This document shows, in pieces, positions 31,776 through 60,577 of a DNA stretch of 64,000 nucleotides. The position numbers and the translations under genes were made by a program. The stretch's first letter is position 1. Every line of letters begins with the position of its first letter. This stretch comes from Candidatus Dormiibacterota bacterium (lineage in GTDB: Bacteria; Chloroflexota; Dormibacteria; Aeolococcales; Bog-877). The stretch spans positions 7,708-71,707 of the forward strand of contig JBARIA010000143.1 of the NCBI GenBank assembly GCA_049799515.1. The letters are read 5' to 3'. Below the pieces are notes generated by a model that worked only from the letters and a program-made list of their open reading frames with translations, was not told the origin of the DNA and did not search any database.

Positions 31776-31939
31776 TGGCTGTCACTCCTTGGTTGGTGGC
31801 CGCCATACAGGCGAATGGTGACCGGTCCGGTGGGCGCCCAGGACGGAAAGGGTTTGACTCAGAACCGTAGCCTGCACCCTGGGCGTCTCTCCGGCGGGTA
31901 CTTCGACGCGACGGTTGGCCATCTTTTCGGGCTCTTTCG

Positions 31940-34053: not shown

Positions 34054-34223
34054 AAGGACCTCTCTACTCCACTCTGAATGGTGCTTGCGGCACATTAGCA
34101 AACGGGTGGCCGGCCAGTTGGGGAGCCCCCTCCTCTTCCCAGTCCGACCGCCCAGAGTTAAGCTGCGCGACCACGGGCACCTGGCACCCTCCAGCCCCAA
34201 TTCTGACCCAAGGAGACCCTCGG

Positions 34224-34730: not shown

Positions 34731-34739
34731 CCGGGGAAG

Positions 34740-35783
34740 TCAGTCGGCGATCACCTGGGAGAGCTCGTTGCGCAGTTTCAGTTGGGCAAGGTTGTGGACG
34801 GCATCGATCCAGCGCACCGTCCCGCTGTAAGAGCGCATCACCACCGAGTGGGTCTCGACCATGCCGTCGCCGAACCTCACCCCGCCCAGCATCTCTCCGT
34901 CGGTGATACCGGTGGCGGCGAAGAAGATGTTCTCCCCGCCGCAGAGGTCCTCCGCCAGGAAGATCTGGTCCTCCGAGAAGCCCTCCTTCCGGATCAGCTC
35001 GCGTTCCTCATCGTCGCGGGGCCAGAGCCGGCACTGCATGTCGCCGTGGATGCAGCGCACCGCGCAGGCGGTCAGGACCGCCTCGGTGGCTCCGCCGATC
35101 CCCAGCAGGACGTCCAGGCCGGTGCGCTCGGGCAGGGCCGCCATCACCCCGGCGGCGACATCCCCATCGGTGATCAGCTTGACCCGGGCCCCGGTGGCGC
35201 GGATCTCTCGGAGCAGCTCCTCGTGGCGCGGTCGATCGAGGACCACCACAGTCAGGTCGTGGACCGGGCGGTTCTCGGCAGCGGCGATCCGCTGCAGGTT
35301 CTCGGTATGGGAGACGCGTAGGTCGAACACCCCCCGGCCCGGGGGGCCGACCACCAGCTTCTCCATGTAGGCGCAGTGGGTCTGGAGCAGAGTGTCGCGC
35401 TCGGAGAGGGCGACGGTGGCGATGCCCCCCGGGAGGCCCCGGGCCACCAGCCTGGTGCCGTCGATCGGGTCAACCGCGACGTCCACCAGGGGGGGGTTAC
35501 CGTTGCCGATCTGCTCTCCGATGTAGAGCATCGGGGCCTTGTCCTTCTCCCCTTCGCCGATCTTGACTATCCCGGCCATGTCCACGTGGGAGAGGCTCCG
35601 GCGCATCGATTCGACCGCCGCCCGGTCGGCGGCGATCTTGTCGTCCCGGCCCATCCAGCGGGCGGCCGACATCGCCGCCCCCTCGGTGACCCGGACCAGC
35701 TCAAGGGCCAGATTGCGGTCGATCGGAGTGCCGGGGTCGGCGCCAATCTCGTCCATCTCGAACAGCTCTTCGGCCTTGCTCAT
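34740..35783 (-). CDS. glpX: Fructose-1,6-bisphosphatase class II (GlpX; FBPase/SBPase)
   Basis: Start at MSKAEELFEMD (ATG 35783). The long upstream in-frame extension in the track is non-coding. GlpX motifs VAVDPIDGT and ITDGDVAAG. Confidence 0.9.
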   Translation of the reverse strand: MSKAEELFEMDEIGADPGTPIDRNLALELVRVTEGAAMSAARWMGRDDKIAADRAAVESMRRSLSHVDMAGIVKIGEGEKDKAPMLYIGEQIGNGNPPLVDVAVDPIDGTRLVARGLPGGIATVALSERDTLLQTHCAYMEKLVVGPPGRGVFDLRVSHTENLQRIAAAENRPVHDLTVVVLDRPRHEELLREIRATGARVKLITDGDVAAGVMAALPERTGLDVLLGIGGATEAVLTACAVRCIHGDMQCRLWPRDDEERELIRKEGFSEDQIFLAEDLCGGENIFFAATGITDGEMLGGVRFGDGMVETHSVVMRSYSGTVRWIDAVHNLAQLKLRNELSQVIAD

Positions 35784-35888
35784 GGTGCGCCAGCATACGG
35801 TCTGGGCTCGGGCTTCGAGCCAGGGTGCAGTCGGCGGGAAGGCAGCCGGCCCACGCCGCCTGGCTAGGCAGCAGCCACAATTGGTGAA

Positions 35889-36236
35889 GTGACCGACAGC
35901 CCCTCCCCTTCCCCCTCGATCGATAGCACCACTCCCCGCCGGTTCGGCTACGACGAGGCGGCCCGGGCCTTGCTGGTGGAATGGATGGACGGGACGGGCC
36001 AGGCGATCCCATTCGCCAGACTGAGGCGCTCTTGCCCCTGCGCCCTCTGCAGCGGGGAGCTCGGCCGGCCGGGTCGGTTCCAGCTCGATCCGGAGCTCCA
36101 TCCCGGCGAGGACGAACTCGCCGACATTCAACTGGTCGGCAACTACGGCCTCAAGGCGATCTGGGGCGACGGACATGACACCGGGATCTATCGATTCGAG
36201 TTGCTTCGGCAACTGGGCGCGACCGACCAGGTGTAG
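35889..36236 (+). CDS. DUF971-family protein
   Basis: 115 aa with CPCALC and the conserved C-terminal GNYGL.I.W.DGH.TGIY. Confidence 0.6.
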   Translation: MTDSPSPSPSIDSTTPRRFGYDEAARALLVEWMDGTGQAIPFARLRRSCPCALCSGELGRPGRFQLDPELHPGEDELADIQLVGNYGLKAIWGDGHDTGIYRFELLRQLGATDQV

Positions 36237-36757: not shown

Positions 36758-37933
36758 ATGGAGATCGGATCTCCCGGTCCGATCGAAGAATTGCTCCTCG
36801 TGGACGGGACCAAGAAGTGGGGGCAATCCGCGGTCGCCGCGATCATCGCCAGCGTGGGCGCGCTGGCTTTGATCGGCGGCACCGGCGCGCCCTTGGTCAG
36901 GGCCAACTCCAGCTCAACTCCCCCTTCCCCGACCACTCTGTCGGCTCTGGTCACCAAGGCCAAGGCGGAGCTGGTCAACCTCGGCGCCGAGGTGCAGACG
37001 GCGCGCGAGGCTATCGCCAGCGACAAGACCCAGATCGCCCAGGAGCGCAAACAACTGGCAAGTCTGCTGTCCGAGGAGTACACCGGTGCCCCCAACGGAC
37101 TGCTCTCCATCCTGGCCAGCCCCGACTTCAACGCTGCGCTGGACACCCAGATCGAACTCTCCCAGCTAACCCAGTCCCAGCAGCAACTACTGCTGAAGTT
37201 GACCCAGGCTGTGCGCGCAGAGCAGGCCAGCGAGGCCGCCCTCCAGCAGGAGCAGAAGCAGGAGGCGGCCACGGCGGCCCGGCTGCAGGCTGAAGAGATC
37301 GTGGCTGAGTTCCAGGCGACCGCAGCGGCCACCACCCAGGCGCAGGCCAAAGATGGCCCCGCCTCGACTACCTCACCCGGCGCTACGTCGACCCCCACCC
37401 CGACGCCTGTGACCACCCCCCCTCCTAGTGCACCAACTCCGACTCCGACCTCAACTTCGCCACCTCCGAGTGGGACTGGCGGACCGTTCACGATCACCAC
37501 CAACCTGACCCTCCCCAGTGGCATCTCCTTGGGGCAGATTCAGGAGTTCCTCCAAGGCTCCCCACTGGAGGCGGATGCCAGCTACTTCCTCCAGGCTGAG
37601 CAGACCAATCACGTCAGCGCCATCTACCTGGTCTCCGATGCCGTGCTGGAGACCGGTTTTGGTACTTCCCAGATCTATCTGCAGGACCATAACCTCTTCG
37701 GGTTTGAGGCGTACACATCGGACCCCGGCGACGCGATGCAGTTCGCCAATGACCAGGCATGCATCGCCTACGTGTCGGCCTTCGTTGCGGTCAACTATCT
37801 GAGCTCGAGCGGCGAGTTCTACACGAGTTACGGGCCGACTCCCCAAGGGATGAATGTCCACTACGCGACCGACCCGAATTGGGCTAGCAAAATCGCTGAG
37901 CTAGGAGCCGACCTCCAGCTCGAACCCACCTGA
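36758..37933 (+). CDS. Secreted coiled-coil protein with C-terminal N-acetylglucosaminidase (LytD/FlgJ-type) domain
   Basis: N-terminal hydrophobic anchor, about 170 aa of Q/A/L-rich heptads, a Pro/Thr linker, then a glucosaminidase domain (...LVSDAVLETGFGTSQ...YATDPNWASKI). Confidence 0.65.
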   Translation: MEIGSPGPIEELLLVDGTKKWGQSAVAAIIASVGALALIGGTGAPLVRANSSSTPPSPTTLSALVTKAKAELVNLGAEVQTAREAIASDKTQIAQERKQLASLLSEEYTGAPNGLLSILASPDFNAALDTQIELSQLTQSQQQLLLKLTQAVRAEQASEAALQQEQKQEAATAARLQAEEIVAEFQATAAATTQAQAKDGPASTTSPGATSTPTPTPVTTPPPSAPTPTPTSTSPPPSGTGGPFTITTNLTLPSGISLGQIQEFLQGSPLEADASYFLQAEQTNHVSAIYLVSDAVLETGFGTSQIYLQDHNLFGFEAYTSDPGDAMQFANDQACIAYVSAFVAVNYLSSSGEFYTSYGPTPQGMNVHYATDPNWASKIAELGADLQLEPT

Positions 37934-41465: not shown

Positions 41466-42614
41466 CTAGGGGTAGATGAACCCCAAGATTCCCTGCGTAT
41501 TGGGAACGGAACGCAGGTCCTCGTGGCCGGGGACGTAGTTCGCCTCTTCCACGTAAAACCCCTGGCCTGCCGGCCCAGTGCCAGTCTGGACGACCCACGC
41601 CACATGGCCGAGGTCGCTGTATGCGCCGCCGGGGCGAAATACCACCATGGAACCCACTTCCGGGGTCATCCCCTCGGGGTAAGGGTCGAGCATGCTCGCA
41701 TTACCAGAGATCCAGCCGTCGGCGTTCGCCGACCAGCCGACATACGCCTCCGAAGCCACGAACCAGGTGCACTGTCCTGGTGGGTAGTTGTCCGGTGCCG
41801 AGCCAAAGTTCGGGTAATCGGGATCCGAATAGACTTGGAGGATCGTTCCGCCTGCCCCGAGGGATCCGCCCCCTTCGGAGACCGCCTCCTCCTCCTGCAA
41901 GTTCTGGATCTGGCTCGACAAGCTCTGGATTTGCGCCGAGATCTGGGCTGCCTGTCCGCTGAGGCTGCTCTGCTCGGAGCTGTAAGTGTCCTCCGCTGAC
42001 TGCAGCTGATTGCTCTGGCTCTGCAGTCCGCTGACCAAGACCGCAACCGCTTGCTCCTGAGCCTGCTGCTGGGCTTGTAGCTTCTTCAGAGTGTTCGCGT
42101 CACTGATCAACTGCTTGGTGAGTGAGTCAAACTGCTGCCGCACCGTCTGAAGGTCTACCGTGTCGTCCACCAACTTGGAGATATTGGAGCTATTGGCGAT
42201 CGCCGCAGCTAGAGAGTTGCTGGAATCCCTCTGGTAGAGGGTCGTGACCAACGCGGCCAGCTCGGTTCGATCACGGGCCATCTGTGCTTCGGTGGTTGTC
42301 AATTGATTGGTTGTCGCGGTGAGTTGAGCGTTCGCAACGCTCAGGGCGATTTGCTCCTGAGAAAGCTTCTGCTGGATCGCGGTTATCTGGATCTCCGTGG
42401 TGGCGGCCTGCTGCCCAGCTGATGCAGCCTGGCCCTCGAGGGTTTGGAGTTGGCTGATCAAAGCGTTCTGCTCTGCTTGAAGCGCTGAGATCTCGGACCC
42501 ATAGCTGGCAGCCGCCGGACCAGTTGTTAAAAGCGATGCCGCCATGGCGGCAATTCCGAACACACCCAACTGGGCGGCGGCGCGTAGTACTCGCTTAGTT
42601 CGGAATTGAGACAT
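41466..42614 (-). CDS. Secreted coiled-coil protein with C-terminal CHAP amidase/peptidase domain (PcsB/RipC-like architecture)
   Basis: Signal/anchor, about 230 aa Q-rich coiled coil, and a CHAP domain with Cys (PGQCTWFV) and His (GHVAWV). Confidence 0.7.
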   Translation of the reverse strand: MSQFRTKRVLRAAAQLGVFGIAAMAASLLTTGPAAASYGSEISALQAEQNALISQLQTLEGQAASAGQQAATTEIQITAIQQKLSQEQIALSVANAQLTATTNQLTTTEAQMARDRTELAALVTTLYQRDSSNSLAAAIANSSNISKLVDDTVDLQTVRQQFDSLTKQLISDANTLKKLQAQQQAQEQAVAVLVSGLQSQSNQLQSAEDTYSSEQSSLSGQAAQISAQIQSLSSQIQNLQEEEAVSEGGGSLGAGGTILQVYSDPDYPNFGSAPDNYPPGQCTWFVASEAYVGWSANADGWISGNASMLDPYPEGMTPEVGSMVVFRPGGAYSDLGHVAWVVQTGTGPAGQGFYVEEANYVPGHEDLRSVPNTQGILGFIYP

Positions 42615-42853
42615 AGGCTGGAACGTGAGATGTGATTGTCTCGGCCTCTGACTCTAACAGCGATCACGGTGGCCTGCAAGTTCAGTGACAAGTTCGTACT
42701 GCGGTCAGGGCCAGTACCGCCGCCTCCCGCAGGGTCAGGCCGTCGGGTGGCCGGATCGATCGCTCGGCTTTAGGCCGCGATCCCGAAGACGACGGCTCCC
42801 AGCCCGACGAGCTAGCGCGCGAAGATAAGTCGGGGCCGGGGAAGTGCGCTACT

Positions 42854-48467: not shown

Positions 48468-49064
48468 ATGTCCACTAACCTGGTGACCGGCTCCGGCCAC
48501 GGCCCGCACGGACACAGGACCTGGCTCCACCTGCTCTCCGAGGATCCGGCGTTTGTCCCAGGACCGGAGCAGGTGGATGGCACTGCCCAACTGTTGGTGG
48601 AGTGCGGTCTGGCGACCCGGGGCTCCGACCCGGACATTCTCCTGCCCGGTCCCGCCTTCGCCCGACTGCTGCTGGCCCCAGGCAGGCTCCCGATGGCCGG
48701 GCCCGTTCGCGGCGAGGTTCGACTCGCGGTAGGAGTGCTCCGCTGTTATCCGGACCCCGGGCCCGATGGCTTCGACACCGAACCGCTCCAGAGCTACCTG
48801 GCCGACTGCCCCACCTGCGGGGTCCAACTGGAGTTCTTTCGGCTGCGCTTCCCTGACCCCGACCCCATGCGGGCCGCCTGCCCCAGCTGCGCCCGGGACT
48901 TTGACATCTCCACCCTTCTCTGGTCTCCCCGGCTGCCGGTGGCTCGGGCCGAGCTGACCTTCGGTGATCTGGAGGGTCGACCCTCCTTGCGGGGGACTGG
49001 CTTCTTCGGTCAGCTCGAGCAGCTCTGGGAAACTTCGCTCTTCGAGGTCTATGTCACTCTCTGA
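48468..49064 (+). CDS. Hypothetical protein with CxxC...CxxC zinc-ribbon
   Basis: 198 aa: CPTCGVQLEFF...CPSCARDFDI. Convergent with the VirB6-like gene. Confidence 0.4.
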   Translation: MSTNLVTGSGHGPHGHRTWLHLLSEDPAFVPGPEQVDGTAQLLVECGLATRGSDPDILLPGPAFARLLLAPGRLPMAGPVRGEVRLAVGVLRCYPDPGPDGFDTEPLQSYLADCPTCGVQLEFFRLRFPDPDPMRAACPSCARDFDISTLLWSPRLPVARAELTFGDLEGRPSLRGTGFFGQLEQLWETSLFEVYVTL

Positions 49065-49069
49065 GGCGC

Positions 49070-49972
49070 TCACAGCTCCGTCGCCGCCAGCCGCCGAGCC
49101 GCCCTGGTCCAGCGCCGCCCCGCCCCCTCGGCGCTGGACCCGTAGTGCGACGCAACATTCAAAGCGCCGGGAACCCGGAGCATCAGGTAGAGCGCGGCGA
49201 ACGCGTAGAGGATGCCGATCACTCCGTGACCATGCGTAAACGCCAACTCGATGGCGCTCCGCAAGACCAGCAGCTGCACGAACTGCATGAAGAGAGTGAT
49301 CACCAAAAGCCGCAGCCACTGCCGCGAAAACGCTCTGGTCTCGGGTAGGATCCAGGCGATCGCGGCCAGTGGTGCGGCGGCGCAGAGAACTGCCAACAAG
49401 GTATAGCGGACGACGTAGGCGAGCACAAGAATGACTACGGCGATGACCAGCGCTGCTGCAAACAACAGCAGGAAAATGTTGGTGGAAGCGGACTGCAGCG
49501 CGGAACCACTGAGCGGTGTATCCCAGGGCAGCTGGGCCAGACTGACACTGCCCCCACCCGCGACGACCGCACTCAGCGCGTTGTTGAGGTTGACGGCCTG
49601 CTGAAGCAACGGTAGAGATACCACCCCCAAGGCCAGCCCCACCAACACCCGAGGAAGAACCACTTGCAGGTGATGGCGAGCATCGCCCGCGCTGACCACT
49701 GTCCGCAGTGAGCTGTAGATGAAGACCGCCACCAGCAGAGCCCCGGCAGCACCTAGTAGGAGGTGATTCAGTTGGGCCACACCTGGCGTATCGGTGAAAG
49801 GTTGGTGTCGGAGTGGGGCCGCGGCGTCGTAGGTGCCCAAGAGGTAGGTCCGGAGCGCCGCATCGAGAGCCTTCCGCGAGGAACTCACGAACGAAGTCAG
49901 GGTGCCGCTGATCAGATGGTCGAGCAGGGAGAGTGGATGAAGGTCGAAACTCGGGAAGGTCAGTGCGGCCAA
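49070..49972 (-). CDS. Polytopic membrane protein, VirB6/TrbL-like candidate
   Basis: 300 aa with at least six TM helices and an Ala/Leu-rich N-terminal periplasmic stretch. Terminal gene of the array containing the VirB4-like ATPase. Family assignment is by architecture and context only. Confidence 0.45.
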   Translation of the reverse strand: MAALTFPSFDLHPLSLLDHLISGTLTSFVSSSRKALDAALRTYLLGTYDAAAPLRHQPFTDTPGVAQLNHLLLGAAGALLVAVFIYSSLRTVVSAGDARHHLQVVLPRVLVGLALGVVSLPLLQQAVNLNNALSAVVAGGGSVSLAQLPWDTPLSGSALQSASTNIFLLLFAAALVIAVVILVLAYVVRYTLLAVLCAAAPLAAIAWILPETRAFSRQWLRLLVITLFMQFVQLLVLRSAIELAFTHGHGVIGILYAFAALYLMLRVPGALNVASHYGSSAEGAGRRWTRAARRLAATEL

Positions 49973-49975
49973 GTC

Positions 49976-50215
49976 TTAGCCGAGGCTGTGGGGCACCGCC
50001 GCCAGCAGGACGTGGGTGAGCACCCCGGCCAGCTCCACTCCCAGAGTCCCGACGGCGATGCGCCCCAGCCAGCGCTGGGCCTCCATCGCGCTGTGTGGGT
50101 TGGGTGCGACCACCCGCCAGACAAAGGCGCTGACAAAGGCCAGCGTGCCCAGACTGCCGATGATTCCCTGTCCGATAAGGACCCAGGAATTGAGCAGCGA
50201 ATTGAGCTCACTCAC
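49976..50215 (-). CDS. Small two-TM protein (VirB2/VirB3/PrgI-like candidate)
   Basis: 79 aa with two hydrophobic helices separated by a short polar loop. Four-nt gap to the VirB6-like gene. Confidence 0.4.
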   Translation of the reverse strand: MSELNSLLNSWVLIGQGIIGSLGTLAFVSAFVWRVVAPNPHSAMEAQRWLGRIAVGTLGVELAGVLTHVLLAAVPHSLG

Positions 50216-50284
50216 GAGATGACTCCCCCCGAAGACCGAGATGCTCCCTCCCCTATGTCCGCCGGGAGCAGGAGCTGGTGCCAG

Positions 50285-50755
50285 TCAGCCGCAGTCGGCT
50301 GACCAGGGAGCTTCGGAGCTGGTGGCGACGATGGTCACCGGTCCGTCGTTTACCGAGTCGACGAGCATGTGGGCCCCGAACTGTCCCTGACTCACCCGCA
50401 CCACTCCCAGACGACGCAGCTCCTCGCCGAAAAGCTGGTACAGCTCGCGCCCGCGTTCCGGGCCCGCCACCGCGGTGAATGCTGGACGGTGACCCCGACG
50501 GGTGTCGGCGAAAAGGGTGAACTGGCTGACCACCAGCGCCTCGCCACCGACCTCCAGCAGAGAGCGGTTCATCTTGCCCTCGGCGTCGGGAAACATCCGG
50601 AGCCGGGCCAGCCGCTCGGCGAAGTGACGGGCTACCTCCGGCTCGTCGCTGGGTGCCACTCCCAGGTAGATCACCAAGCCGGTTTTTATCGCCGCGATCA
50701 GCTCGCCATCGACTGTGACCCTGGCCCGGGCGGCGCGCTGGACCACCGCCCGCAA
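50285..50755 (-). CDS. dtd: D-aminoacyl-tRNA deacylase
   Basis: SQFTL and NDGPVT motifs. TTG start at 50755 (LRAVVQRA...). The track ORF carries a spurious N-terminal extension. Confidence 0.85.
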   Translation of the reverse strand: MRAVVQRAARARVTVDGELIAAIKTGLVIYLGVAPSDEPEVARHFAERLARLRMFPDAEGKMNRSLLEVGGEALVVSQFTLFADTRRGHRPAFTAVAGPERGRELYQLFGEELRRLGVVRVSQGQFGAHMLVDSVNDGPVTIVATSSEAPWSADCG

Positions 50756-50759
50756 TGAA

Positions 50760-51356
50760 TCAGCCGATGGCCCGCAGGCTGCGGTAGATGCGCATCGCCT
50801 CGGCCTCGGCCTCCAGGAAGCCCGGAGCCCGGTCCTGCATGCCATGGATGGCAAAGCTCCACCAGCCGGGAGAGCTGGCCGGACCGGGCAGGGTCACCCC
50901 CCGGTAGCGGGGTGGGTAGAAGGTGATGGTGCCCCCCGGGAGCCGCTTGAAGATCGGCCCCGAGACCATGACCTCGTCAATGCTGCGGGGACCGCTCAAC
51001 TGACCCTCGACCACGGCCAACTGGCGTTGCTTGCGAATGGGGTTGTCTGGATCGGCGACCACCGCCCTGCCTCCCAGCGTCTCGGTCAGCCGAAGCAGGC
51101 CGAAGCAGATGGCCAGAGCGTCTGTCTCGTCGCCAGCCAGCCGGACGAAGCCGGCACCGAAGATCGGCTCGCGGCTCTCCAGGCGGAGGTGGCGCAGGTA
51201 CTCCATCTCAAAGAGCGAGTGGGAGTCGTCGGTGGCCAGCCATGGAGGCTCGGAGTGCCAGCTCCTGGTGGAGGCGAAGTCCGCCACCGCCTCCATCCAC
51301 TCGACCCCGCCTGCCCGGCCGGGGTTGGTCAGCCGCACGAATAACACCCGGCCCAT
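50760..51356 (-). CDS. Hypothetical conserved protein
   Basis: Start assigned at MGRVLFVRLTNPG (ATG 51356). About 198 aa, soluble, no recognisable motif. Four-nt gap to dtd. Confidence 0.4.
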   Translation of the reverse strand: MGRVLFVRLTNPGRAGGVEWMEAVADFASTRSWHSEPPWLATDDSHSLFEMEYLRHLRLESREPIFGAGFVRLAGDETDALAICFGLLRLTETLGGRAVVADPDNPIRKQRQLAVVEGQLSGPRSIDEVMVSGPIFKRLPGGTITFYPPRYRGVTLPGPASSPGWWSFAIHGMQDRAPGFLEAEAEAMRIYRSLRAIG

Positions 51357-51420
51357 GGAGATTGATTCTAGCCGTGGTCCCCTGGGGGCCCACTTCACTG
51401 GACCAGAGCTACGCGTCAGT

Positions 51421-53415
51421 TCAGGAGGGCTCTTCGGTGCTGAGCAATCGGTGATACCAAGGCGGTGCCTCGATCTGGATCGGCGAGCGCCGCGGACCCA
51501 GGAGCAGGAGGAACTGTCCCCGGCTGGCTCTTTCCAACCACTGACGCTGGGCGTCATCCAGGAGGAACCCCTGCTGCAGCCGGACCGCAGCCGCCGGATG
51601 CTGGCTGCCCAGGAGCATGGTCGCCGAGTTGACCGCCATGACCTCGCCGGGGGCGCTGCCCAGGAGGTCTCCTGCTGACTGGGTCAGGAGCACCAGGGAT
51701 CCCTGGTACTTGCGAATACGCCGCGCCAACTGAGCCATCAGCCGTTGCAGCGGAGCATTGTCGGCCAGCAACCCAGCCTCATCCACGATCGCCTGCTTTC
51801 GGCCCCGGTGGGAGCGGATCCAGGACCAGAGCCAATGGGAGACCAGAAGGGTGGCGGCCGGGACCCAGGCAGCTGGCAGCTCGCGAAGCCCCACAGCAGC
51901 GGCAATCTCAACCGCCGGGCCCCGTCCGGGGGAGTTGAACAGTGCGCCGGGAGTCCCATCCAGCCAGGGGAGCAACCGATGAGCCACTGACTCGCCAGCT
52001 TCGCTCCGCCGGAGTCGGGGGAGGCAGTCCGAAAGCACCGCCGTGCCGGACCCCGCCTCCGACAGGGTCCACCGGACCGCGTCGGAGACCTGGCCGATCT
52101 CCGCCGGCGAGAGCTGACCGCAGAGCAGAGAGACCAGTTCTGCCACCGCGCTGGGGGCCTCCCCAGGCTCCGCCATCTCCAGCAGGTTGAACCCGCAGGG
52201 AGTCGACTCCCCCAGCGAGAGGTATTGGCCCCCGACCGCCTCGCACCAGCGACGGTGCTCGTTTTCAGGATCCAGGACCACCGTGCGAACCCCCAGACGC
52301 ACCGCCTCCAATCCCAAAAGTCCACCGAGGTAGGACTTGCCACTGCCAGACGCGGCGACGACCCCCAGGTTGGCGTTGGGAAGGGCCGTCACATCGTGGA
52401 GGTTCAGCCAGACAGGGGCTCCCGTGCGGAGGTGCCGACCGAGGTTTACGGCTCCCGCAGTTCTCCCGTCCCAGTCATCCAGCCAGGGCCAGAGGGACGC
52501 CAGCTCAGCGCTCTGGACCACCCGTCGCGGCCCTGGCGGTTGGGACGCGAGGAGCTCCGTGTGCAGCCGGGCCGGACCCTGGTTGCACCAGGCCGGGACC
52601 AGCGCCGCCCTCAGCGCGGTCATTCGAGACCGCAGCTGACCGGCCAGCTGGCGGGTTTCGATCCAGCTGTCGCCGGCCACGCTCACGGCGATCGCCAGGT
52701 CGAAAAGCTTCCCTTCGGATCTGGCCAGTACCTCCCGCAAACGAGCCGCCGAGTCCAACGCAGCCTGCAATCGGGGGTCCCCCTGGTAACCGCGCTCCCC
52801 CGCTGCTAGCTCTCTTGCCCGCAGCCCGAGGATCCGCCGCCGGAGGGTGCGGTCGACCTCTCCTTGAGCCCGTGGCCAGATGTCCAGGGCCAGGTCAAAC
52901 TCGCCCGGCATCCCGACCAGCGACCACAGCCAACCCGGAGCCACTCCCACACCCGGCAGCCGCTCCAGCCACAGCGAGGTCAGGTATCTTCCCCCGGCGC
53001 GCAGCATGGTCGGTCGCTCCCGCCACGGACCCTCCGCCAGCGGAGGCGGTCGCTCCTGGACCTTCAGCCGGATCGCGGAGGATGCTGGCAGCTCCGGATC
53101 GGTCGCATTCCCAGCCCGGGACACGAACACCTGCCGGCGAAAGACAGGTGTCTGCCGCTTCCCCTCGGCGAGGTGCTCTTCCAGAGCCAGCTGCAACTCG
53201 GCTGTCCGGCCGCTGGCCGCCGACCCCCCCGGGAGCGAGCCAGCCGGCTCACGCCTGGAACAGACCAGGAAGCGCACCGGCAGGCGAAGCTGCTCCAGCC
53301 AGGTCGCCAGTTCGCCGGTAAACTTCAGGCGCTCAGTGGCGACCAGATCGAGGATGTCCGGAGCCTCGGCTCGCCAGGTTATCTGGTGGCTGTCATCATC
53401 CCCGTCGGACCTCAC
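51421..53415 (-). CDS. VirB4/TrbE/TraC-like P-loop ATPase
   Basis: 664 aa. The N-terminal roughly 330 aa are non-ATPase. Walker A GVVAASGSGKSY, Walker B QAIVDEAGLL, and a downstream LVLLTQSAGDL sensor-like motif. Size and layout fit VirB4; FtsK/HerA-like is the alternative. Four-nt overlap with the upstream membrane protein gene. Confidence 0.65.
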   Translation of the reverse strand: MRSDGDDDSHQITWRAEAPDILDLVATERLKFTGELATWLEQLRLPVRFLVCSRREPAGSLPGGSAASGRTAELQLALEEHLAEGKRQTPVFRRQVFVSRAGNATDPELPASSAIRLKVQERPPPLAEGPWRERPTMLRAGGRYLTSLWLERLPGVGVAPGWLWSLVGMPGEFDLALDIWPRAQGEVDRTLRRRILGLRARELAAGERGYQGDPRLQAALDSAARLREVLARSEGKLFDLAIAVSVAGDSWIETRQLAGQLRSRMTALRAALVPAWCNQGPARLHTELLASQPPGPRRVVQSAELASLWPWLDDWDGRTAGAVNLGRHLRTGAPVWLNLHDVTALPNANLGVVAASGSGKSYLGGLLGLEAVRLGVRTVVLDPENEHRRWCEAVGGQYLSLGESTPCGFNLLEMAEPGEAPSAVAELVSLLCGQLSPAEIGQVSDAVRWTLSEAGSGTAVLSDCLPRLRRSEAGESVAHRLLPWLDGTPGALFNSPGRGPAVEIAAAVGLRELPAAWVPAATLLVSHWLWSWIRSHRGRKQAIVDEAGLLADNAPLQRLMAQLARRIRKYQGSLVLLTQSAGDLLGSAPGEVMAVNSATMLLGSQHPAAAVRLQQGFLLDDAQRQWLERASRGQFLLLLGPRRSPIQIEAPPWYHRLLSTEEPS

Positions 53416-54335
53416 CAGGATCTGGAGGCGGCCAGCACCTCCCGGGCTAGAGCTCTGACTCCAGCGGCCGAAGGCTGCTCCGGGCCCGCGGTCTTAGTGG
53501 CGTCCTGCTGGCCCAGACGCGGGTCCACGGGGATCGCGGCCGCCAGCCGGGCACCGGCTCCGCTGATCTGGTCGCGCAAACCTGAAGCCGATCCGGCCCG
53601 ATTGAGAGTAACCAGCAGCTCGACCCCCGGGAAGCTTCGCCGCAGGGCCGCCATCCCGCCCGCCAGCTCCCCCGGGAAAAGCTCAACCCCATCCCAGACC
53701 AGAACCACACCAGCCACCTGACTGCGCCGAGCTCGGTCCCGCCAAGCTGATCCCCAATCGAGGAGAACCAGAGCGGTCCGATCTCCGACTTGCCGGTCGG
53801 CAACGACCCAGAGCCCCCTGACCGGCCGGCCACGAGCTCCCTCTCCGATCTCCCGAACCTCGACGCGGAGTCGGGTCGCTACCGCCCGACACACGGCGGT
53901 GCAGCCGACCCCTGGCCCAAGTGAGAGGAAGGCGACCAGCGCCGGGCCCGGCTCCTGGCCGAAGGGACCCGGTCGGTCGCCGACTTCTGAATCTGCCTCG
54001 ACCCATTGCCGCTGCCCCTCCCCAAAAGCGGCAACTACTCGGCCCGCATAGGCCAGGGCCAGCCAGGCCCAGCGGGCCACCGAGACCCCCTGCACCCTTC
54101 CCCAGGCCAGGATCGCCGTGGTCAGCACCAGAAGGCCGGCGGCGCCCACGCGGAGCACAGCCGGCAGCGGCAGCTCAGCCACCGCCCAGGCGCTGGCGGC
54201 GCCCAGACCAGCCAGAACCAGCCGAGGCACGGGAAGTCCCAGAGCGACCACTGCCTCGCCGTCCAGGTTGTCCGCAAATCGAAGGTTTTCCATGGTTGGC
54301 TCCGGGACGTTCCCGCTCCACTGGAGTCCGCCCAC
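53412..54335 (-). CDS. Membrane protein with VirB3/PrgI-like N-terminus and C-terminal soluble domain
   Basis: N-terminal roughly 90 aa with two TM helices (LVLAGLGAASAWAVA..., GAAGLLVLTTAILAW), then a roughly 200 aa Arg/Val-rich domain. Sits immediately upstream of the VirB4-like ATPase, translationally coupled. Confidence 0.45.
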   Translation of the reverse strand: MGGLQWSGNVPEPTMENLRFADNLDGEAVVALGLPVPRLVLAGLGAASAWAVAELPLPAVLRVGAAGLLVLTTAILAWGRVQGVSVARWAWLALAYAGRVVAAFGEGQRQWVEADSEVGDRPGPFGQEPGPALVAFLSLGPGVGCTAVCRAVATRLRVEVREIGEGARGRPVRGLWVVADRQVGDRTALVLLDWGSAWRDRARRSQVAGVVLVWDGVELFPGELAGGMAALRRSFPGVELLVTLNRAGSASGLRDQISGAGARLAAAIPVDPRLGQQDATKTAGPEQPSAAGVRALAREVLAASRSW

Positions 54336-54355: not shown

Positions 54356-54745
54356 TCAGTGCGGTCGGGAGATCTCCACCGCGAAGCCCTTTACCTGGGC
54401 GGGGAGTCGGGGGGGCTTGCTGACCCGGAGGTGCACCCTCTTCACCTTGGGCAGCCGCAGCACCGCCTCGGCGATCTGGGACGCCATCGCCTCCAACAGG
54501 TGGAACTCGCCCTCTTCCACGATCCCCCGGACTATCTCGTACAGATCCACGTAGTTGACAGCGTCAGCCAGGTCGTCGGTGACCTGTGCGCGGCCAGTGT
54601 CTGCCTCAATCTCCAGATCGACTGTGAACTCTCCCCCGGCCCGCCGTTCGGCGGCGGAGACGCCGTGGTGGCCGAAGAAGCGCAGCCCGTCCAGCACCAT
54701 GAGATCTGGCCGGATCTGGCCGGGGTCGGTCCGGCTCGAGTTCAA
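54356..54745 (-). CDS. folB: Dihydroneopterin aldolase
   Basis: 129 aa: LRFFGHHGV..ER..G..F.VDL... VDLYEIV. HLLEA.A. Confidence 0.85.
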   Translation of the reverse strand: MNSSRTDPGQIRPDLMVLDGLRFFGHHGVSAAERRAGGEFTVDLEIEADTGRAQVTDDLADAVNYVDLYEIVRGIVEEGEFHLLEAMASQIAEAVLRLPKVKRVHLRVSKPPRLPAQVKGFAVEISRPH

Positions 54746-54769: not shown

Positions 54770-55255
54770 TCAGCGGCCCTTGGGCTTCTTTTCGATGGCC
54801 TCGATGGAGTCGATGTGGACCACCTCGCGCCGGTTGTCCCGGGTGGGGAAAAGCACGACCAGGGTCTGGGAGAGGGCCGCGATCACCTGCCCAACGTCAC
54901 CAACTGAGATGCCCTCGATCACCTCCCCTGTGCTGTGGCGTACGACGTCGTTCACCTTCACCCAGCTGCCCGGGGGCCAGCGCATCTCCGGGGTCAGCTC
55001 CTCGGGACTGAGGTCCTCGATGGAGACGGCCCCGCGGTTCCCACCCCAGGGACGGGTTGGGGAGGGTCTGGGCGCCACTCGCGCGACTGGGGCTGTCGGC
55101 GCCTCAGCCACCAGCTCTGGTTCGGCTTCCTCGACGATCTCCAGCTCCTCCTCGTCATCCCCGTCCGCGACCACCACGGTCTCGGCCTGGTCCTGGTCGT
55201 CATGGCCAGGACCAGGCTCTTCCGAATTGGGCGTGCGCTTGGGACTCATGGGCAC
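54770..55255 (-). CDS. Hypothetical acidic protein
   Basis: N-terminal half is Asp/Glu/Pro-rich and likely disordered. C-terminal roughly 60 aa is compact (WVKVNDVVRHSTGEVIEGISVGDVGQVIAALSQTLVVLFPTR). Confidence 0.4.
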   Translation of the reverse strand: MPMSPKRTPNSEEPGPGHDDQDQAETVVVADGDDEEELEIVEEAEPELVAEAPTAPVARVAPRPSPTRPWGGNRGAVSIEDLSPEELTPEMRWPPGSWVKVNDVVRHSTGEVIEGISVGDVGQVIAALSQTLVVLFPTRDNRREVVHIDSIEAIEKKPKGR

Positions 55256-55355
55256 CAGATCACAGAATTGGGACCTGCCGCAGGGCGACAGCCAGGGGCT
55301 GACACTGCAACTCTCTCAGCCTACCATGAGCTCCGCCGGAACTCAGACCGAGGGA

Positions 55356-55763
55356 TCACTCCTCGATGATTGAGGTAACCCGCCACGGCTCGCGCTGGCC
55401 GTCCAGCACCATCCGCAGCTGCACCGGCTCGTTGGTGGTGCTGGGTGACGCGTCGGTGGTCAGAAAGCTGGTCCGATCGCGATACCGAAGCCGCACGGTG
55501 GCCTGAGTCTGGCCGGCGATCTCGGAGATCTCCAGGTTGAGCGACTCCCGGAACGGACTGACCTGGATTCCCGCGGCCTGGTATGCGGTGAAGCGAGCCT
55601 TGAGTTCCGGAAGAGCATCTCCGGCAAAGGCCTGACCGAGGCGGCTCAAGTTGCCGCTCACCGCGGCGTCGTCCAGCACCGCCAGGATCCGTCGCATCTC
55701 ACTCCGGACCCGCTCGATCAGCTGAGGATCAGGCGACTTGCGTCGCTTGGGCAAGTTAGGCAT
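55356..55763 (-). CDS. Hypothetical protein
   Basis: 135 aa, no family recognised. Four-nt overlap with the upstream gene. Confidence 0.4.
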   Translation of the reverse strand: MPNLPKRRKSPDPQLIERVRSEMRRILAVLDDAAVSGNLSRLGQAFAGDALPELKARFTAYQAAGIQVSPFRESLNLEISEIAGQTQATVRLRYRDRTSFLTTDASPSTTNEPVQLRMVLDGQREPWRVTSIIEE

Positions 55764-56471
55764 CTAGCCCGGCGCCCCACGCGGACGCAGCATCCGGAGC
55801 AGATCGGTGGGCAGGTACGCCGAGGCCGCTTGCAGCGGCCCGTCGGAGGCCTCCAGGACCACCGATCCTGGGTCATCGTCCTCGATCGCGCCGTCCAGAG
55901 AAACCGGGGCTGGGGGCACCTGGACCGTCGGTGCCTCGGCCCAGCCGAAATCATCCCGGGGCGGGGACTGCTGGGAACCCTTCGGCCTGCTGGCGTTCTG
56001 GGCCTGAGCTGCCTTGAGCCGGCTGACCGATTCCTCCGCCTCCAGCCCGGACCCGGTCGGGATCTCCTCGTATCCGGGGCGACGGACGCCCTGGACGGTC
56101 CGGCCGATGAGGGCCACCGGCAGGCTCTCCAAGTTCTGCAAAAGGGTCATGCCGGCAGCCTCCACCAGGCATTGCAAGGTGGGCAGCGGCCAGGGCGAAT
56201 CCCCCGGGTAGACGTAACAGCGGTTGGCCGGAAAGTGGCGCAGTTGGGAGAGGACGGTGAACCCGGGATTGCCACTGCAGAGGACGGCCGCCGGCGGCTG
56301 GCCGCGATCAAGCATGGCCCCGATTCGGGCCAGGCTGGTAGCGGGGTCGGCCAGCTCCAGGTCCTCGACCGCCCCCACCACGTTGAAGGAGGGCACCAGT
56401 TCGGCGGCGCGCTGAGCCAGACTGGCCTCCCCGACCACCACGAGCGTGCTCTGCTGGTTGGCGTCATCCAC
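55764..56471 (-). CDS. Hypothetical protein with receiver-like N-terminal fold
   Basis: 235 aa. TLVVVGEASLAQRAAELV...AAVLCSGNPGF resembles a pseudo-receiver (no phospho-Asp context). Pro/Gln-rich C-terminus. Confidence 0.4.
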   Translation of the reverse strand: MDDANQQSTLVVVGEASLAQRAAELVPSFNVVGAVEDLELADPATSLARIGAMLDRGQPPAAVLCSGNPGFTVLSQLRHFPANRCYVYPGDSPWPLPTLQCLVEAAGMTLLQNLESLPVALIGRTVQGVRRPGYEEIPTGSGLEAEESVSRLKAAQAQNASRPKGSQQSPPRDDFGWAEAPTVQVPPAPVSLDGAIEDDDPGSVVLEASDGPLQAASAYLPTDLLRMLRPRGAPG

Positions 56472-58932: not shown

Positions 58933-59565
58933 CTACTTGCAGACCCATTCCCCGGACTCGCCGATGGAGAACATCTTGGCTGCGATATCAGACTGCTGGA
59001 CCGGGTCCCAAATGTCGGTGCCACCATGGGCATGGAAGGTCGCCGGCATGAACTGGAACAGTCCGCTGGCGCCCGACGACTTGTTGACGTCGGTGGGATT
59101 CAGTCCCGACTCACACTTGGCCACCCCGAGCAGCCAGGTGTAGGAGACGTCGTACTGCTGAGCTGCCGACCAGATGATCTGCATGATCGTGCCGATCGGC
59201 GGCTCCGGAACCGCCTGCCAGAAGGCTGAGCCGAAGGGCAGGCCTGCCGGGGCCACCGGTGGTGGCGGGGGGAGCACCTGGGCCTCCTGGAGCGGCAGGG
59301 TCACCTGGTAGTCGGTCACCGAGAGCACGCTGCGCGCCTGGCTGGCGACCTGGGCGATGGCAGCGGGGGCGGTTGAGGGTGGCCCAGAGGCGCCTCCGGT
59401 GGCCAGGGCACCCAGTACCGGGGTGCTGACCAAGAGGACGGTTGCGGCGATGATCCACCGCAGCCGGCTGGCCAGCAGGGGAATCCGACGGACCTTCGCC
59501 TTCTCTTGGTGGCGGAGGCTGAGGGCAACTCTGGGGGTGTAGGAGGGCCAGGTTAGCTGCGCCAA
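58933..59565 (-). CDS. Lytic transglycosylase (SLT domain) with N-terminal anchor
   Basis: Catalytic ...LGVAKCESGLNP... and ...SGASGLFQFMPATF. Confidence 0.7.
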   Translation of the reverse strand: MAQLTWPSYTPRVALSLRHQEKAKVRRIPLLASRLRWIIAATVLLVSTPVLGALATGGASGPPSTAPAAIAQVASQARSVLSVTDYQVTLPLQEAQVLPPPPPVAPAGLPFGSAFWQAVPEPPIGTIMQIIWSAAQQYDVSYTWLLGVAKCESGLNPTDVNKSSGASGLFQFMPATFHAHGGTDIWDPVQQSDIAAKMFSIGESGEWVCK

Positions 59566-59566
59566 G

Positions 59567-60577
59567 TCAGGAGCCTGCGGTGGGCGGGTAGATGAATCCG
59601 TCGAAACCCGAACCCGCGTCGGGGACCACCCGGTAGTCGACCTTGTCGAAACCTCCGCCGGAGCCGTAGTAGTTCATCTCGGAGACTTCGAAGTTGTTGG
59701 GATAGCCGGCTCCTGGCACTGAGACAGCGGTGACGTAGGCCACGTGGCCCGCGTCAGAGGCCCCGCCGGAGTCTGGCGGCCACACCACGATCGCCCCCAC
59801 CACCGGGGTGCTGCCCTCCGCATGGCCGGCGGCGGCGGCATTGGCCCACCACTGGTAGGCGTCGCCACCCCAGTTGACATCCCAGCCGTTGGCCCGCCAC
59901 TGGCCAGCTGCCCAGTAGGTGCAGGTGCCGAAGGCAAAGGCCCAGTCACCGGTGGTCACGCTGGCGCTGGGGTGAGTCAGCTCGGATAGCAGCTCGTTGG
60001 ACTGAACCCCCAGCTGACCTTCAATCGCCACGGCACTGTCCTCGTCGGCCAGCAACTGCTGATCTGCCTTGGTGATCGACTGCTGGTCATGCTGGATTGA
60101 GTTCACCAGCTGAGCCACCTGGGAGGCGATGGCGTCAGGCAGAGTGGAGTTGTCGAAGAACTGGGTCATGTCGGATGAGGCCAGGGCGGTGGCTACCTCA
60201 GCGGCACCGTTGCCGTCCACATAGGCGGTGCTGACCAGGCTGATCAGCGCCTTGCGATCTCCGGCCAGCTGAACTTCCAGCACCTGCTGGGTCGTTTGAT
60301 CGTTGCTTAGCTGCTGGTTCAGCGAGTTGAGCTGGTCCTGGTTCGTCTCGATCTTCGTCAGCAGGATCCTCACCGAACTTGCGTCAGCAACCTCCCCCTG
60401 CGCCTCCAGCTGATCTAGCAGCGAGGTCAGAGCTTGCTGATTAACAGGGTCAGTCGACTGCTGAGCTGTGGCCCCTAGGCCCGGTACGAAGATCGAGGAG
60501 ACCCATACCAATCCGGCCGCGCTGGCAGCAAGCCATGCGCGCCCGGCAAAGCGGGCTCCGCGCATACGTCCTCCCAC
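59567..60577 (-). CDS. Secreted coiled-coil protein with C-terminal CHAP domain (paralog of 41466-42614)
   Basis: Signal/anchor, about 180 aa Q-rich coiled coil, and CHAP Cys (GTCTYWAAGQW) and His (GHVAYV). The start is 1 nt after the SLT gene stop. Confidence 0.7.
   Translation of the reverse strand: MGGRMRGARFAGRAWLAASAAGLVWVSSIFVPGLGATAQQSTDPVNQQALTSLLDQLEAQGEVADASSVRILLTKIETNQDQLNSLNQQLSNDQTTQQVLEVQLAGDRKALISLVSTAYVDGNGAAEVATALASSDMTQFFDNSTLPDAIASQVAQLVNSIQHDQQSITKADQQLLADEDSAVAIEGQLGVQSNELLSELTHPSASVTTGDWAFAFGTCTYWAAGQWRANGWDVNWGGDAYQWWANAAAAGHAEGSTPVVGAIVVWPPDSGGASDAGHVAYVTAVSVPGAGYPNNFEVSEMNYYGSGGGFDKVDYRVVPDAGSGFDGFIYPPTAGS

Follow-up and report, generated by a model that had tools for sequence, protein, structure and literature searches.

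A seven-gene array of Candidatus Dormibacterota probably encodes a chromosomally fixed, vertically inherited and minimal type IV secretion system (T4SS) core of the monoderm type, which is made up of VirB2-like, VirB3, VirB4 and VirB6 components and is not conjugative. The array lies in a window of 64 kb, by which we mean the whole stretch of DNA that was analysed, and this window is core chromosome of a MAG of a soil bacterium from this uncultured phylum. Four of the seven genes belong to T4SS families (pilin-like 79-aa, PrgI/VirB3-like, VirB4 and TrbL/VirB6-like) and are interleaved with folB, dtd and a gene for a 198-aa protein. The array, from its head, and two wall hydrolase genes further upstream are as follows.

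54356-54745, minus strand: folB (dihydroneopterin aldolase), head of the array
53412-54293, minus strand: PrgI/VirB3-like two-TM N-terminus with a degenerate ParA/MinD-like domain
51421-53415, minus strand: VirB4-family ATPase, 664 aa
50760-51356, minus strand: conserved 198-aa soluble protein, no family assignment
50285-50755, minus strand: dtd (D-aminoacyl-tRNA deacylase)
49976-50215, minus strand: 79-aa helical-hairpin membrane protein, candidate leaderless VirB2/T4SS_pilin-like protein
49070-49972, minus strand: TrbL/VirB6-like polytopic membrane protein, 300 aa
58933-59565, minus strand: SLT/Rpf-like transglycosylase
59567-60577, minus strand: coiled-coil and CHAP, PcsB-like hydrolase

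An earlier note on this DNA had described a tightly packed run of genes, and all the genes it named were found on the minus strand where it had placed them, with folB immediately adjoining the PrgI-like gene. The junctions confirm the packing, the genes overlapping or lying a few bases apart: in GTGA the stop of the PrgI-like gene overlaps the start of VirB4, the stop of the 198-aa gene is 4 nt ahead of the dtd start and that of the 79-aa gene 3 nt ahead of the TrbL start. From this spacing and from synteny we infer that the array would be co-transcribed.

VirB4 is the sole ATPase of the module. Its catalytic motifs are intact: AASGSGKS (Walker A) occupies 52333-52356, IVDEAG (Walker B) 51772-51789 and LLTQSAGD 51667-51690, and 15 relatives all share K360 of Walker A and D545/E546 of Walker B. 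The protein exceeds the Pfam cut-offs for P-loop_TraG (40.2 bits, cut-off 25.8), AAA_10 (32.5 bits, cut-off 27.5) and DUF87 (28.4 bits, cut-off 23.2). The top NCBIfam matches are all VirB4/TraC families (CD1110-type VirB4, 9e-21; TraC, 7e-19; VirB4_CagE, 2e-16), each below its equivalog cut-off. In a PDB profile search the ATPase matched 4ag5, the C-terminal domain of Thermoanaerobacter VirB4, at 3e-60 and TrwK at 5e-22, so that the VirB4 identity previously proposed for 51421-53415 holds. Identity as a HerA/FtsK-type helicase was rejected, the HerA-type match in the same search reaching only 1e-3.

The 307-aa protein encoded next to VirB4 was also said to have a VirB3/PrgI-like two-TM N-terminus. 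This part, about residues 1-95, was recovered in an hhalign comparison of the Dormibacterota core with an alignment seeded from NCBI-annotated PrgI (probability 91.7%, P = 7.8e-7, 76 columns; controls, P at least 0.035). The conserved ATG at 54293 is a likelier start than the GTG at 54335. In relatives Pfam PrgI is found below threshold (L108, 1.4e-4; L157, 4.8e-4; L006, 3e-3; L101, 0.04). The ParA/MinD-like tail to which this N-terminus is fused is degenerate and partly deleted, with GPGVGCT in place of GKT and the NR motif kept. In the sister clade the orthologue L108:8775-9941 scores 40.2 bits for Pfam ParA (cut-off 27.1), and the tail is missing from L003, L005 and L009.

The 300-aa protein at the other end of the array is a member of Pfam TrbL_4 (1.6e-13, 51.1 bits, cut-off 27), in agreement with its earlier description as VirB6/TrbL-like, and a hydropathy scan gives about six hydrophobic/TM segments. 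Its homologues include a 753-aa protein of the conjugative T4SSs of Embleya and Streptomyces, encoded ahead of PrgI and VirB4 (about 1e-13), and, in Saccharibacteria, large VirB6-like ORFs that lie close to VirB4 (3e-12 to 1e-5). Among Dormibacterota it is 54-86% identical, with many invariant motifs.

Directly upstream of TrbL is the 79-aa gene, and in Embleya and Streptomyces this position is held by a PF18895 T4SS_pilin (72 bits). No match to Pfam was found for the 79-aa protein and a Foldseek search returned nothing significant. An AF2 model has two helices, 2-36 and 40-73 (pLDDT 88). Against an alignment of 70 T4SS_pilin sequences hhalign gave P = 4.9e-4 over 79 columns with a probability of 32% (controls, P at least 0.035). 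The match to the PF18895 family is thus weak and specific, and it suggests, weakly, that the protein may be a pilin. The protein was seen in Dormibacterota only, where its length is constant at 79 aa and its identity 71-96%; E61 and H68 (helix 2) and R34 and R52 (loop) are invariant and R48 nearly so. Such very high conservation is unusual for a surface pilin and counts against the pilin assignment.

Of the interleaved genes, dtd and folB are housekeeping genes. The earlier description of a bona fide dtd is borne out by TIGR00256 (150 bits, cut-off 101.5) and Pfam Tyr_Deacylase (1.2e-49), with the correction that the start is likelier TTG 50755 than 50854. Its position is identical in all Dormibacterota loci, and folB (TIGR00525, 94.9 bits, cut-off 72.15; Pfam FolB, 1.2e-30) is kept next to the PrgI-like gene, on its upstream side, in all of them. 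The 198-aa protein accompanies dtd even where VirB4 does not adjoin, and is linked to dtd, not to VirB4 specifically. The SLT and CHAP hydrolases had likewise been placed further up the same strand, and we find them syntenic in all Dormibacterota loci (Pfam SLT, 3.6e-10, NCBIfam RpfC weak; Pfam CHAP, 1.4e-13, NCBIfam PcsB, 1e-19). Six genes lie between them and the PrgI-like gene (M20, menC-like, three unknowns and folB), and a second PcsB-like paralogue is present at 41469-42653. By their sequences the two hydrolases look like cell-division (Rpf-/PcsB-type) wall enzymes, and would be context genes and not a dedicated VirB1.

Our search of the 64-kb window turned up no relaxase, coupling ATPase or integrase. 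The Walker-A proteins there are only PEPCK, phosphoribulokinase, a CbbX-like AAA protein, an ABC ATPase and VirB4. A Pfam scan, which took in most ORFs of about 180 aa and up and few shorter ones, found the larger remaining ORFs to be mostly housekeeping, those of 409, 299, 281, 209 and 184 aa being without a family match. The inventory and the scan of larger ORFs together support the earlier statement that the window is without a relaxase, a VirD4/TcpA-type coupling ATPase or an integrase. Nor was a conventional ICE, with relaxase and coupling protein just outside, seen in ten related Dormibacterota loci with 10-kb flanks, none of which has homologues of actinobacterial T4CP or relaxase. A conventional conjugation system could also be split, with the channel here, the coupling protein, relaxase and oriT elsewhere in the chromosome, and DNA export continuing. 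In Patescibacteria most VirD4 homologues/T4CP are indeed far from virB4 (Quinonero-Coronel et al. 2025, PMC12102498), some Dormibacteria have a second, divergent VirB4 paralogue (P0204), and our inspection covered 64 kb, plus 10-kb flanks in relatives only. We nevertheless regard a split system as improbable: no T4CP or relaxase was found in the window or the ten loci, the same housekeeping neighbourhood occurs phylum-wide, unlike that of mobile elements, and there is no integrase or repeat boundary in a region of uniform GC content.

Every Dormibacterota locus examined has the seven genes in this order, as read from gene tables (L002, L003, L005, L100, L101 and L182) or from homologue positions (L007-L009), while VirB4 identity falls from 76% to about 40%. 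The flanking hemE, UbiA and ispH are syntenic too, and a synteny check of the kind the earlier note had called for showed the array in an unchanged housekeeping context in all ten related loci with their 10-kb flanks. In comparison with the most distant orthologue, L003, identity is 84% for the 79-aa protein, 67% for TrbL and 66% for the 198-aa protein, against 60% for hemE, 60% for dtd and 75% for ispH. The 79-aa protein and TrbL are therefore conserved to the level of hemE, dtd and ispH, which is housekeeping-level constraint. VirB4 (43% in the same comparison) and the PrgI-like protein evolve faster than these two. Phylum-wide synteny and housekeeping-level conservation support the earlier reading of the array as a domesticated machine and not a conjugative element. 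That the array is what is left of an ancient integrated conjugative element, in decay and without present function, might be suspected from the incomplete set (no T4CP or relaxase, and no VirB8-like protein identified) and from the ParA tail, which is degenerate, has lost a part in this genome and is gone from some lineages. This we consider very improbable, since all four ORFs of T4SS families remain intact in each short-read locus examined, the Walker A/B residues of VirB4 are invariant, start-stop coupling is preserved and the level of conservation of TrbL and the 79-aa protein has been held over deep divergence.

In a sister clade PrgI-ParA and VirB4 adjoin a gene for class II ribonucleotide reductase, and neither TrbL nor a pilin lies within 10 kb of them. 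This suggests that the PrgI-like/VirB4 half and the TrbL/79-aa half may not be obligately linked. It could even be that the array consists of unrelated neighbouring units, with PrgI-ParA/VirB4 serving, for example, in positioning or as a membrane-associated ATPase, TrbL and the 79-aa protein forming a separate membrane complex, and 198-aa/dtd as a third unit. Limnocylindria-like loci, which keep VirB4, the 198-aa gene and dtd without TrbL, and the different evolutionary rates of the two halves would fit such an arrangement, but we think it unlikely, as the four families are canonical partners in characterised T4SSs, occur together in actinobacterial conjugative loci and are separated by at most 3.5 kb in every Dormibacterota locus examined.

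If the array is a minimal T4SS core, as we favour, the PrgI-like protein would hold a VirB4 hexamer at the membrane, with TrbL/VirB6 as the platform on which the hexamer works. The 79-aa protein might be a leaderless VirB2-like pilin, extracted from the membrane for polymerisation, or might stay with TrbL as a fixed subunit of the channel. Among characterised systems ComB and Ced/Ted likewise have VirB4 as their only ATPase, and therefore DNA import or exchange or the assembly of a contact pilus would be likelier than relaxase-driven export. By analogy, we tentatively suggest DNA import or exchange as a function; a role in pilus formation, adhesion or protein secretion is just as tentative a suggestion.

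Patescibacteria (CPR) have chromosomal T4SSs that usually lack a relaxase (PMC12102498), and the T4SS is essential in Southlakia epibionticum according to Wang et al. 2023, as cited there. Like the Dormibacterota array these systems are of the monoderm type, with VirB3/PrgI, VirB4 and VirB6 and with VirB2-like pilins near virB4, and CPR VirB4 proteins are among the strongest matches of the Dormibacterota VirB4 profile. An NJ tree, however, joins Dormibacterota VirB4 and high-GC, Limnocylindria-like relatives (bootstrap 67) in a clade apart from CPR, which groups with Firmicutes (weak support). The Dormibacterota host is a free-living autotroph-type soil bacterium and not an ultrasmall epibiont, and its locus has one pilin candidate, the leaderless 79-aa protein, where Patescibacteria have arrays of pilins with signal peptides. 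It also has no separate TrsD, a ParA-like tail on PrgI, and T4SS genes interleaved with folB and dtd.

The archaeal Ced/Ted DNA import systems are domesticated, with VirB2-, VirB4- and VirB6-like parts, the leaderless pilin CedA1 and a ParA-like partner (Beltran et al. 2023, PMC9905601). Shared with the Dormibacterota array are chromosomal encoding of a T4SS derivative, a VirB4-like ATPase, a VirB6-like polytopic protein, small two-TM proteins and the lack of a relaxase; Ted loci also include a ParA/VirC1-like gene, where the Dormibacterota PrgI-like protein carries its ParA/MinD-like tail. The host here is bacterial, however, and a sequence relationship is undetectable beyond the superfamily (NCBIfam CedD, 0.05 only). 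CedA1 resembles CedA, whereas the 79-aa protein showed no similarity to the TrbL N-terminus, and Ced/Ted imports DNA, which for the Dormibacterota array is a tentative suggestion. ComB of Helicobacter pylori is a chromosomal DNA uptake system with VirB4 as its sole ATPase and no VirD4 or relaxase (reviewed in PMC12857230). The Dormibacterota locus is likewise chromosomal, with VirB4 as the sole ATPase of its module and no VirD4 or relaxase found nearby, and it may likewise serve uptake and not export. ComB is a diderm system of the MPF_T lineage with VirB7, VirB8, VirB9 and VirB10 homologues, while the Dormibacterota VirB4 resembles monoderm VirB4 much more closely (4ag5, 3e-60, against TrwK, 5e-22). 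As members of a monoderm clade (bioRxiv 10.1101/2021.05.31.446380), Dormibacterota would not be expected to have VirB7, VirB9 and VirB10.

The same component families are found in the actinobacterial conjugative T4SSs of Embleya sp. NBC_00896 (plasmid NZ_CP108778.1) and Streptomyces sp. BHT-5-2 (NZ_CP081497.1), whose VirB4 is 29-31% identical to that of Dormibacterota. There too the T4SS_pilin is directly upstream of the TrbL-like gene, and PrgI has a long C-terminal extension. Directly downstream of VirB4 these plasmids further encode a VirD4-type coupling protein, a member of the replication-relaxation family and an NlpC/P60 hydrolase; in place of these three the Dormibacterota array carries dtd, folB and the 198-aa gene.

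The genes of the array are all present on the minus strand at the coordinates at which the earlier note had called them:

49070-49972, minus strand: TrbL-like protein (Pfam TrbL_4)
49976-50215, minus strand: 79-aa protein (gene call)
within 50285-50854, minus strand: dtd, probable start TTG at 50755 (TIGRFAM equivalog)
50760-51356, minus strand: 198-aa protein (gene call)
51421-53415, minus strand: 664-aa VirB4-family ATPase (Pfam and profile search)
53412-54335, minus strand: 307-aa membrane protein with a PrgI-like N-terminus, conserved start more likely ATG at 54293
54356-54745, minus strand: folB (TIGRFAM equivalog)

The tight packing described for this run was borne out. The stop of the PrgI-like gene and the GTG start of the VirB4 gene overlap in GTGA, the two genes being translationally coupled; 3 nt separate the stop of the 79-aa gene from the TrbL start and 4 nt the stop of the 198-aa gene from the dtd start. 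The ribosome-binding site of the 79-aa gene is GGGGGGAG. The two housekeeping genes, dtd and folB, are what they had been taken to be, both scoring above TIGRFAM equivalog cut-offs. A promoter and terminator scan gave a number of sites no higher than expected by chance.

The 664-aa ATPase is above the Pfam cut-offs for P-loop_TraG, AAA_10 and DUF87. In NCBIfam it comes closest to CD1110-type VirB4, TraC and VirB4_CagE but stays well under the equivalog cut-off of each, so that it is a divergent member of the VirB4 family. It is identical (100%) to a protein annotated in a Candidatus Dormibacterota MAG, on a contig of 76.6 kb. The alternative that it is a HerA or FtsK protein was weighed with a profile built from 15 relatives. 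Against the PDB this profile matched 4ag5, the C-terminal domain of Thermoanaerobacter VirB4, at 3e-60 and TrwK at 5e-22, as against 1e-3 for a HerA-like helicase. The protein is a VirB4, the identity originally proposed, rather than a HerA or FtsK. The catalytic motifs are intact, with Walker A K360 and Walker B D545/E546 invariant among the 15 relatives.

In an exhaustive HMM search the VirB4 profile retrieved 2,958 proteins at E ≤ 1e-30, the top matches being of three kinds: high-GC proteins akin to those of Limnocylindria-like loci, the VirB4 of Patescibacteria, and high-GC proteins with 35-41% identity to CPR VirB4. In a neighbour-joining (NJ) tree of 53 sequences (543 columns, 100 bootstraps) the Dormibacterota VirB4 proteins group with high-GC Limnocylindria-like sequences (bootstrap 67), apart from a second, weakly supported group of Actinomycetota, Firmicutes and CPR sequences in which CPR VirB4 is monophyletic (bootstrap 94) and adjoins Firmicutes. 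A pattern-seeded genome scan had first pointed to a place for the Dormibacterota VirB4 beside the Patescibacteria clade, as its sister, or within it, which would imply a common vertical origin. The tree does not support this placement: the Dormibacterota proteins fall outside the Patescibacteria clade, in a topology whose deep nodes are weakly supported, so that the two may still be sisters.

Over its first ~95 residues the 307-aa protein is PrgI/VirB3-like, as had been claimed for its N-terminus. We compared an alignment of Dormibacterota cores with a PrgI-like alignment seeded with the NCBI-annotated PrgI of the Embleya plasmid (NZ_CP108778.1) and extended with ORFs that precede VirB4 in CPR loci. 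The two profiles match over 76 columns (probability 91.7%, P = 7.8e-7), against P of at least 0.035 over 1-17 columns in cross-family and reversed controls, and the gene is coupled to that of VirB4 through the GTGA overlap. With Pfam PrgI the window protein has no match, and its relatives stay below the threshold of 27 bits (14.8-22.7 bits; E 1.4e-4 to 0.04). The C-terminal part of the protein is a degenerate ParA/MinD-like domain, an assignment based on Pfam matches in L101, a locus from a deep Dormibacterota lineage, and L108, a sister-clade locus. The tail is better preserved in L101 (AAA_31 5.6e-4, CbiA 2e-3), and the L108 protein (8775-9941) reaches 40.2 bits for ParA (cut-off 27.1) and 36.6 for CbiA (cut-off 25.4). 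The ParA-like tail carries GPGVGCT in place of the Walker A GKT and retains the NR motif; it is partly deleted in the window lineage and missing from three related Dormibacterota loci (L003, L005 and L009). A phmmer search of the PDB with the tail from L100, another deep-lineage locus, returned nothing meaningful.

Metagenomes scanned for the sister clade gave 80 loci of 65-78% GC, and a PrgI-like ORF was detected upstream of VirB4 in about half of them. The PrgI-ParA fusion is present in all three of these loci that were checked with Pfam, where it is encoded directly upstream of VirB4 in high-GC soil and peat bacteria (L108:8775-12160, L157:8488-12025 and L127:3528-12112). In L108 and L157 a class II ribonucleotide reductase follows VirB4. 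In L127 a CpaF-like ATPase follows the fusion and a CpaB/RcpC protein precedes VirB4, an arrangement that hints at a link with Tad-type pili. TrbL, pilin, T4CP and relaxase were not detected within 10 kb in the sister-clade loci.

The 300-aa protein matches Pfam TrbL_4 with 51.1 bits (cut-off 27) and has about six hydrophobic segments in a hydropathy scan, in agreement with its earlier description as a polytopic VirB6/TrbL-like protein. It is homologous to actinobacterial and Saccharibacteria VirB6-like proteins. No VirB6 was matched when the PDB was searched with a profile from the TrbL alignment. The 79-aa protein encoded just upstream has no Pfam match at E ≤ 10 and no signal peptide. It was seen in Dormibacterota only, at a constant length of 79 aa and with 71-96% identity. 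In an AF2 model (pLDDT 88) it is a two-helix hairpin, with a basic loop (R34 and R52 invariant, R48 nearly so) and two further invariant residues in helix 2, the membrane-embedded E61 and H68. Its length and the position of the E61 carboxylate match those of E. coli ATP-synthase subunit c, to which no homology was detected; the resemblance might conceivably reflect binding of ions or lipids. In a Foldseek search with the model all matches had E > 1, the conjugative pilin TedC being at rank 23 (E = 4.2).

Among plasmid-borne relatives the closest are the conjugative T4SS of Embleya and of Streptomyces (NZ_CP081497.1). In these a T4SS_pilin (PF18895, 72 bits) is encoded immediately before the TrbL-like gene, so that the 79-aa gene stands where a pilin would be expected. 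An hhalign comparison with a T4SS_pilin alignment of 70 sequences from CPR and actinobacterial loci places all 79 residues in register, with P = 4.9e-4 and a probability of only 32%, where the controls described for PrgI give P of at least 0.035. We consider it probable, although unproven, that the 79-aa protein is a leaderless VirB2-like subunit. A CedA1/CedA-like kinship with the N-terminus of TrbL was also considered, and no similarity was found (P = 0.88).

The earlier note had seen no relaxase and no coupling ATPase in the window, and searches by homology agree with that reading. Three Embleya proteins served as queries, the coupling protein, the replication-relaxation protein and the NlpC/P60 hydrolase, and none of them had a match in the window or in the Dormibacterota and Limnocylindria-like loci. 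Each window protein with a Walker A motif can be assigned (PEPCK, phosphoribulokinase, a CbbX-like AAA protein, two ABC ATPases and VirB4). The larger remaining ORFs, most of them scanned with Pfam, are mainly housekeeping genes. Among those with an assignment are ProRS, DinB, isocitrate dehydrogenase, RuBisCO, CbbR, FBPase and a GGDEF protein, and ORFs of 409, 299, 281, 209 and 184 aa have no Pfam family match. GC content is 62-70% across the window without a compositional break at the locus. In the window and ten related loci there is no homologue of the Embleya T4CP or of its replication-relaxation protein, and no integrase was found in the window. The even GC content, and a neighbourhood that is identical across the phylum, also speak against a conjugative element with island boundaries and a sporadic distribution. 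A VirB8-like protein (PrgL/TcpC, NTF2-fold) had no Pfam or NCBIfam match among the neighbours of the array, and the 135-aa neighbour (55356-55763) is without a TM segment as read from its sequence.

The conservation of the array was followed across relatives, as the note had proposed, and the same order and neighbourhood recur in the Dormibacterota loci examined, down to ~40% VirB4 identity. The order is kept in L002 (76% VirB4 identity), L005 (54%) and L003 (43%), in L007-L009, which come from GTDB species genomes, and in the deeper lineage of L100, L101 and L182 (~40%). The wider neighbourhood is syntenic as well, with UbiA, hemE, CHAP, SLT, M20, a menC-like gene and three unknowns, and ispH further on. 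In comparison with the most distant orthologue, L003, identity is 84% for the 79-aa protein, 67% for TrbL and 66% for the 198-aa protein, while the housekeeping proteins show 60% (hemE), 60% (dtd) and 75% (ispH), and VirB4 and the PrgI-like core 43% and 41%. By these identities TrbL and the 79-aa protein are constrained at least as much as housekeeping enzymes. Such constraint on the membrane pair is a mark of vertical inheritance with purifying selection rather than of a mobile element. In the long contig L001 (ERZ25039507 contig_16369, 2.39 Mb) several genes, for M20, MR_MLE, folB and unknowns, are split into fragments. The same genes are intact in L002, a Logan assembly of the same organism, and the breaks look more like frameshifts from a long-read assembly than like pseudogenes.

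Several neighbours have their own associations. For the 198-aa protein there are more than 239 homologues, constant in length, and a confident structural model with no informative fold match. Elsewhere its neighbours are an alpha/beta hydrolase and dtd but not VirB4, which lies ~8 kb away in L010 and was not seen in the 8-kb flanks of L089. In L087 the protein stands alone. It is associated with dtd as much as with VirB4. A convergent protein, also of 198 aa and with weak zinc-ribbon matches (48468-49064, plus strand), lies immediately downstream of TrbL; its position is kept in six of seven Dormibacterota loci, and it was not detected in L009. Between the menC-like gene and folB (54770-56471, minus strand) are three proteins of 161, 135 and 235 aa with no family match and no predicted TM segment, which are syntenic in all Dormibacterota loci with 38-93% identity. 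A role of the MR_MLE and M20 proteins in peptidoglycan-peptide recycling was set aside, the MR_MLE protein being menC-like above the equivalog cut-off.

The SLT and CHAP hydrolases do lie upstream on the same strand, as the note had observed; the distance is 4.6 kb with six genes intervening, and the pair is syntenic. Their reading as dedicated VirB1 components is unsupported, since the best matches are PcsB and Rpf-like wall enzymes: the CHAP protein combines a coiled coil with CHAP as PcsB does (NCBIfam 1e-19), and the SLT protein weakly resembles Rpf-type transglycosylases. They might serve the machine. The window is unusually rich in wall hydrolases, with the SLT/CHAP pair (58933-60577), a second PcsB-like paralogue of coiled coil and CHAP (41469-42653, minus strand) and a glucosaminidase-domain protein (36758-37933, plus strand). 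It also holds a Calvin-cycle gene cluster (21280-36212, including isocitrate dehydrogenase), which fits the reported autotrophic potential of Dormibacterota:

23668-24573: CbbX-like AAA protein
24548-24964: probable RuBisCO small subunit
24976-26439: RuBisCO large subunit
26467-27462: phosphoribulokinase
27545-28510: LysR/CbbR-type regulator
32497-34233: PEPCK
34740-36212: GlpX FBPase

Of the parts of a monoderm (MPF_FATA-like) type IV secretion core, the array holds VirB4, VirB6/TrbL and VirB3/PrgI members, with the 79-aa protein as a candidate pilin. How the four components might work together can be pictured as follows. The PrgI-like protein would hold a VirB4 hexamer at the membrane, where the hexamer would work with a TrbL/VirB6 platform. 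The 79-aa hairpin would either be pulled out of the membrane by VirB4 and built into a polymer, as VirB2 is, or stay with TrbL as a permanent partner. The clade of Dormibacterota is monoderm (bioRxiv 10.1101/2021.05.31.446380), so VirB7, VirB9 and VirB10 are not expected. Relaxase-driven conjugation by the module is unlikely. Among possible functions we place DNA import or exchange first, tentatively, because VirB4 is the only ATPase both in ComB (PMC12857230) and in Ced/Ted (PMC9905601), which are DNA importers. Contact-pilus assembly or protein secretion comes second and is likewise a possibility to be held loosely. We further speculate, with considerable doubt, that Dormibacterota, and possibly related high-GC Chloroflexota-like lineages with PrgI-ParA and VirB4, have a vertically inherited VirB2-like/B3/B4/B6 system that is a bacterial counterpart of archaeal Ced/Ted. 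With the leaderless 79-aa protein as pilin, it would form a conjugative-type pilus or channel for import or exchange of chromosomal DNA in a free-living monoderm, with no relaxase or coupling protein.

Few chromosomal, relaxase-less derivatives of T4SS are known outside mobile elements, the cases being ComB, a system described in Patescibacteria (PMC12102498) and the domesticated Ced/Ted of archaea (PMC9905601). We found no description of a T4SS in Dormibacterota in the PMC open-access and bioRxiv literature. The module seen here is a VirB4-only four-part core in a free-living host; its PrgI is fused to a ParA-like domain, its 79-aa subunit is unique and invariant, and folB and dtd lie among its genes. 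The machine of Patescibacteria is essential for their epibiotic lifestyle. A related core is fixed in a free-living and abundant soil phylum, a close relative of Chloroflexota and CPR, and T4SS domestication is therefore not tied to epibiosis. The array offers a minimal system in which to ask what a VirB4-only monoderm machine does, and it draws attention to three uncharacterised families, the invariant 79-aa hairpin, the PrgI-ParA fusions and the dtd-linked 198-aa protein. With Ced/Ted the array has in common a leaderless pilin, here the probable one of 79 aa, and a ParA-like partner, which adds to the case for DNA import, but its proteins are not members of the CedA/CedB or TedA/TedB/TedC families and the NCBIfam match to CedD is marginal (E = 0.05), so that the array resembles Ced/Ted in composition and logic rather than in sequence family.
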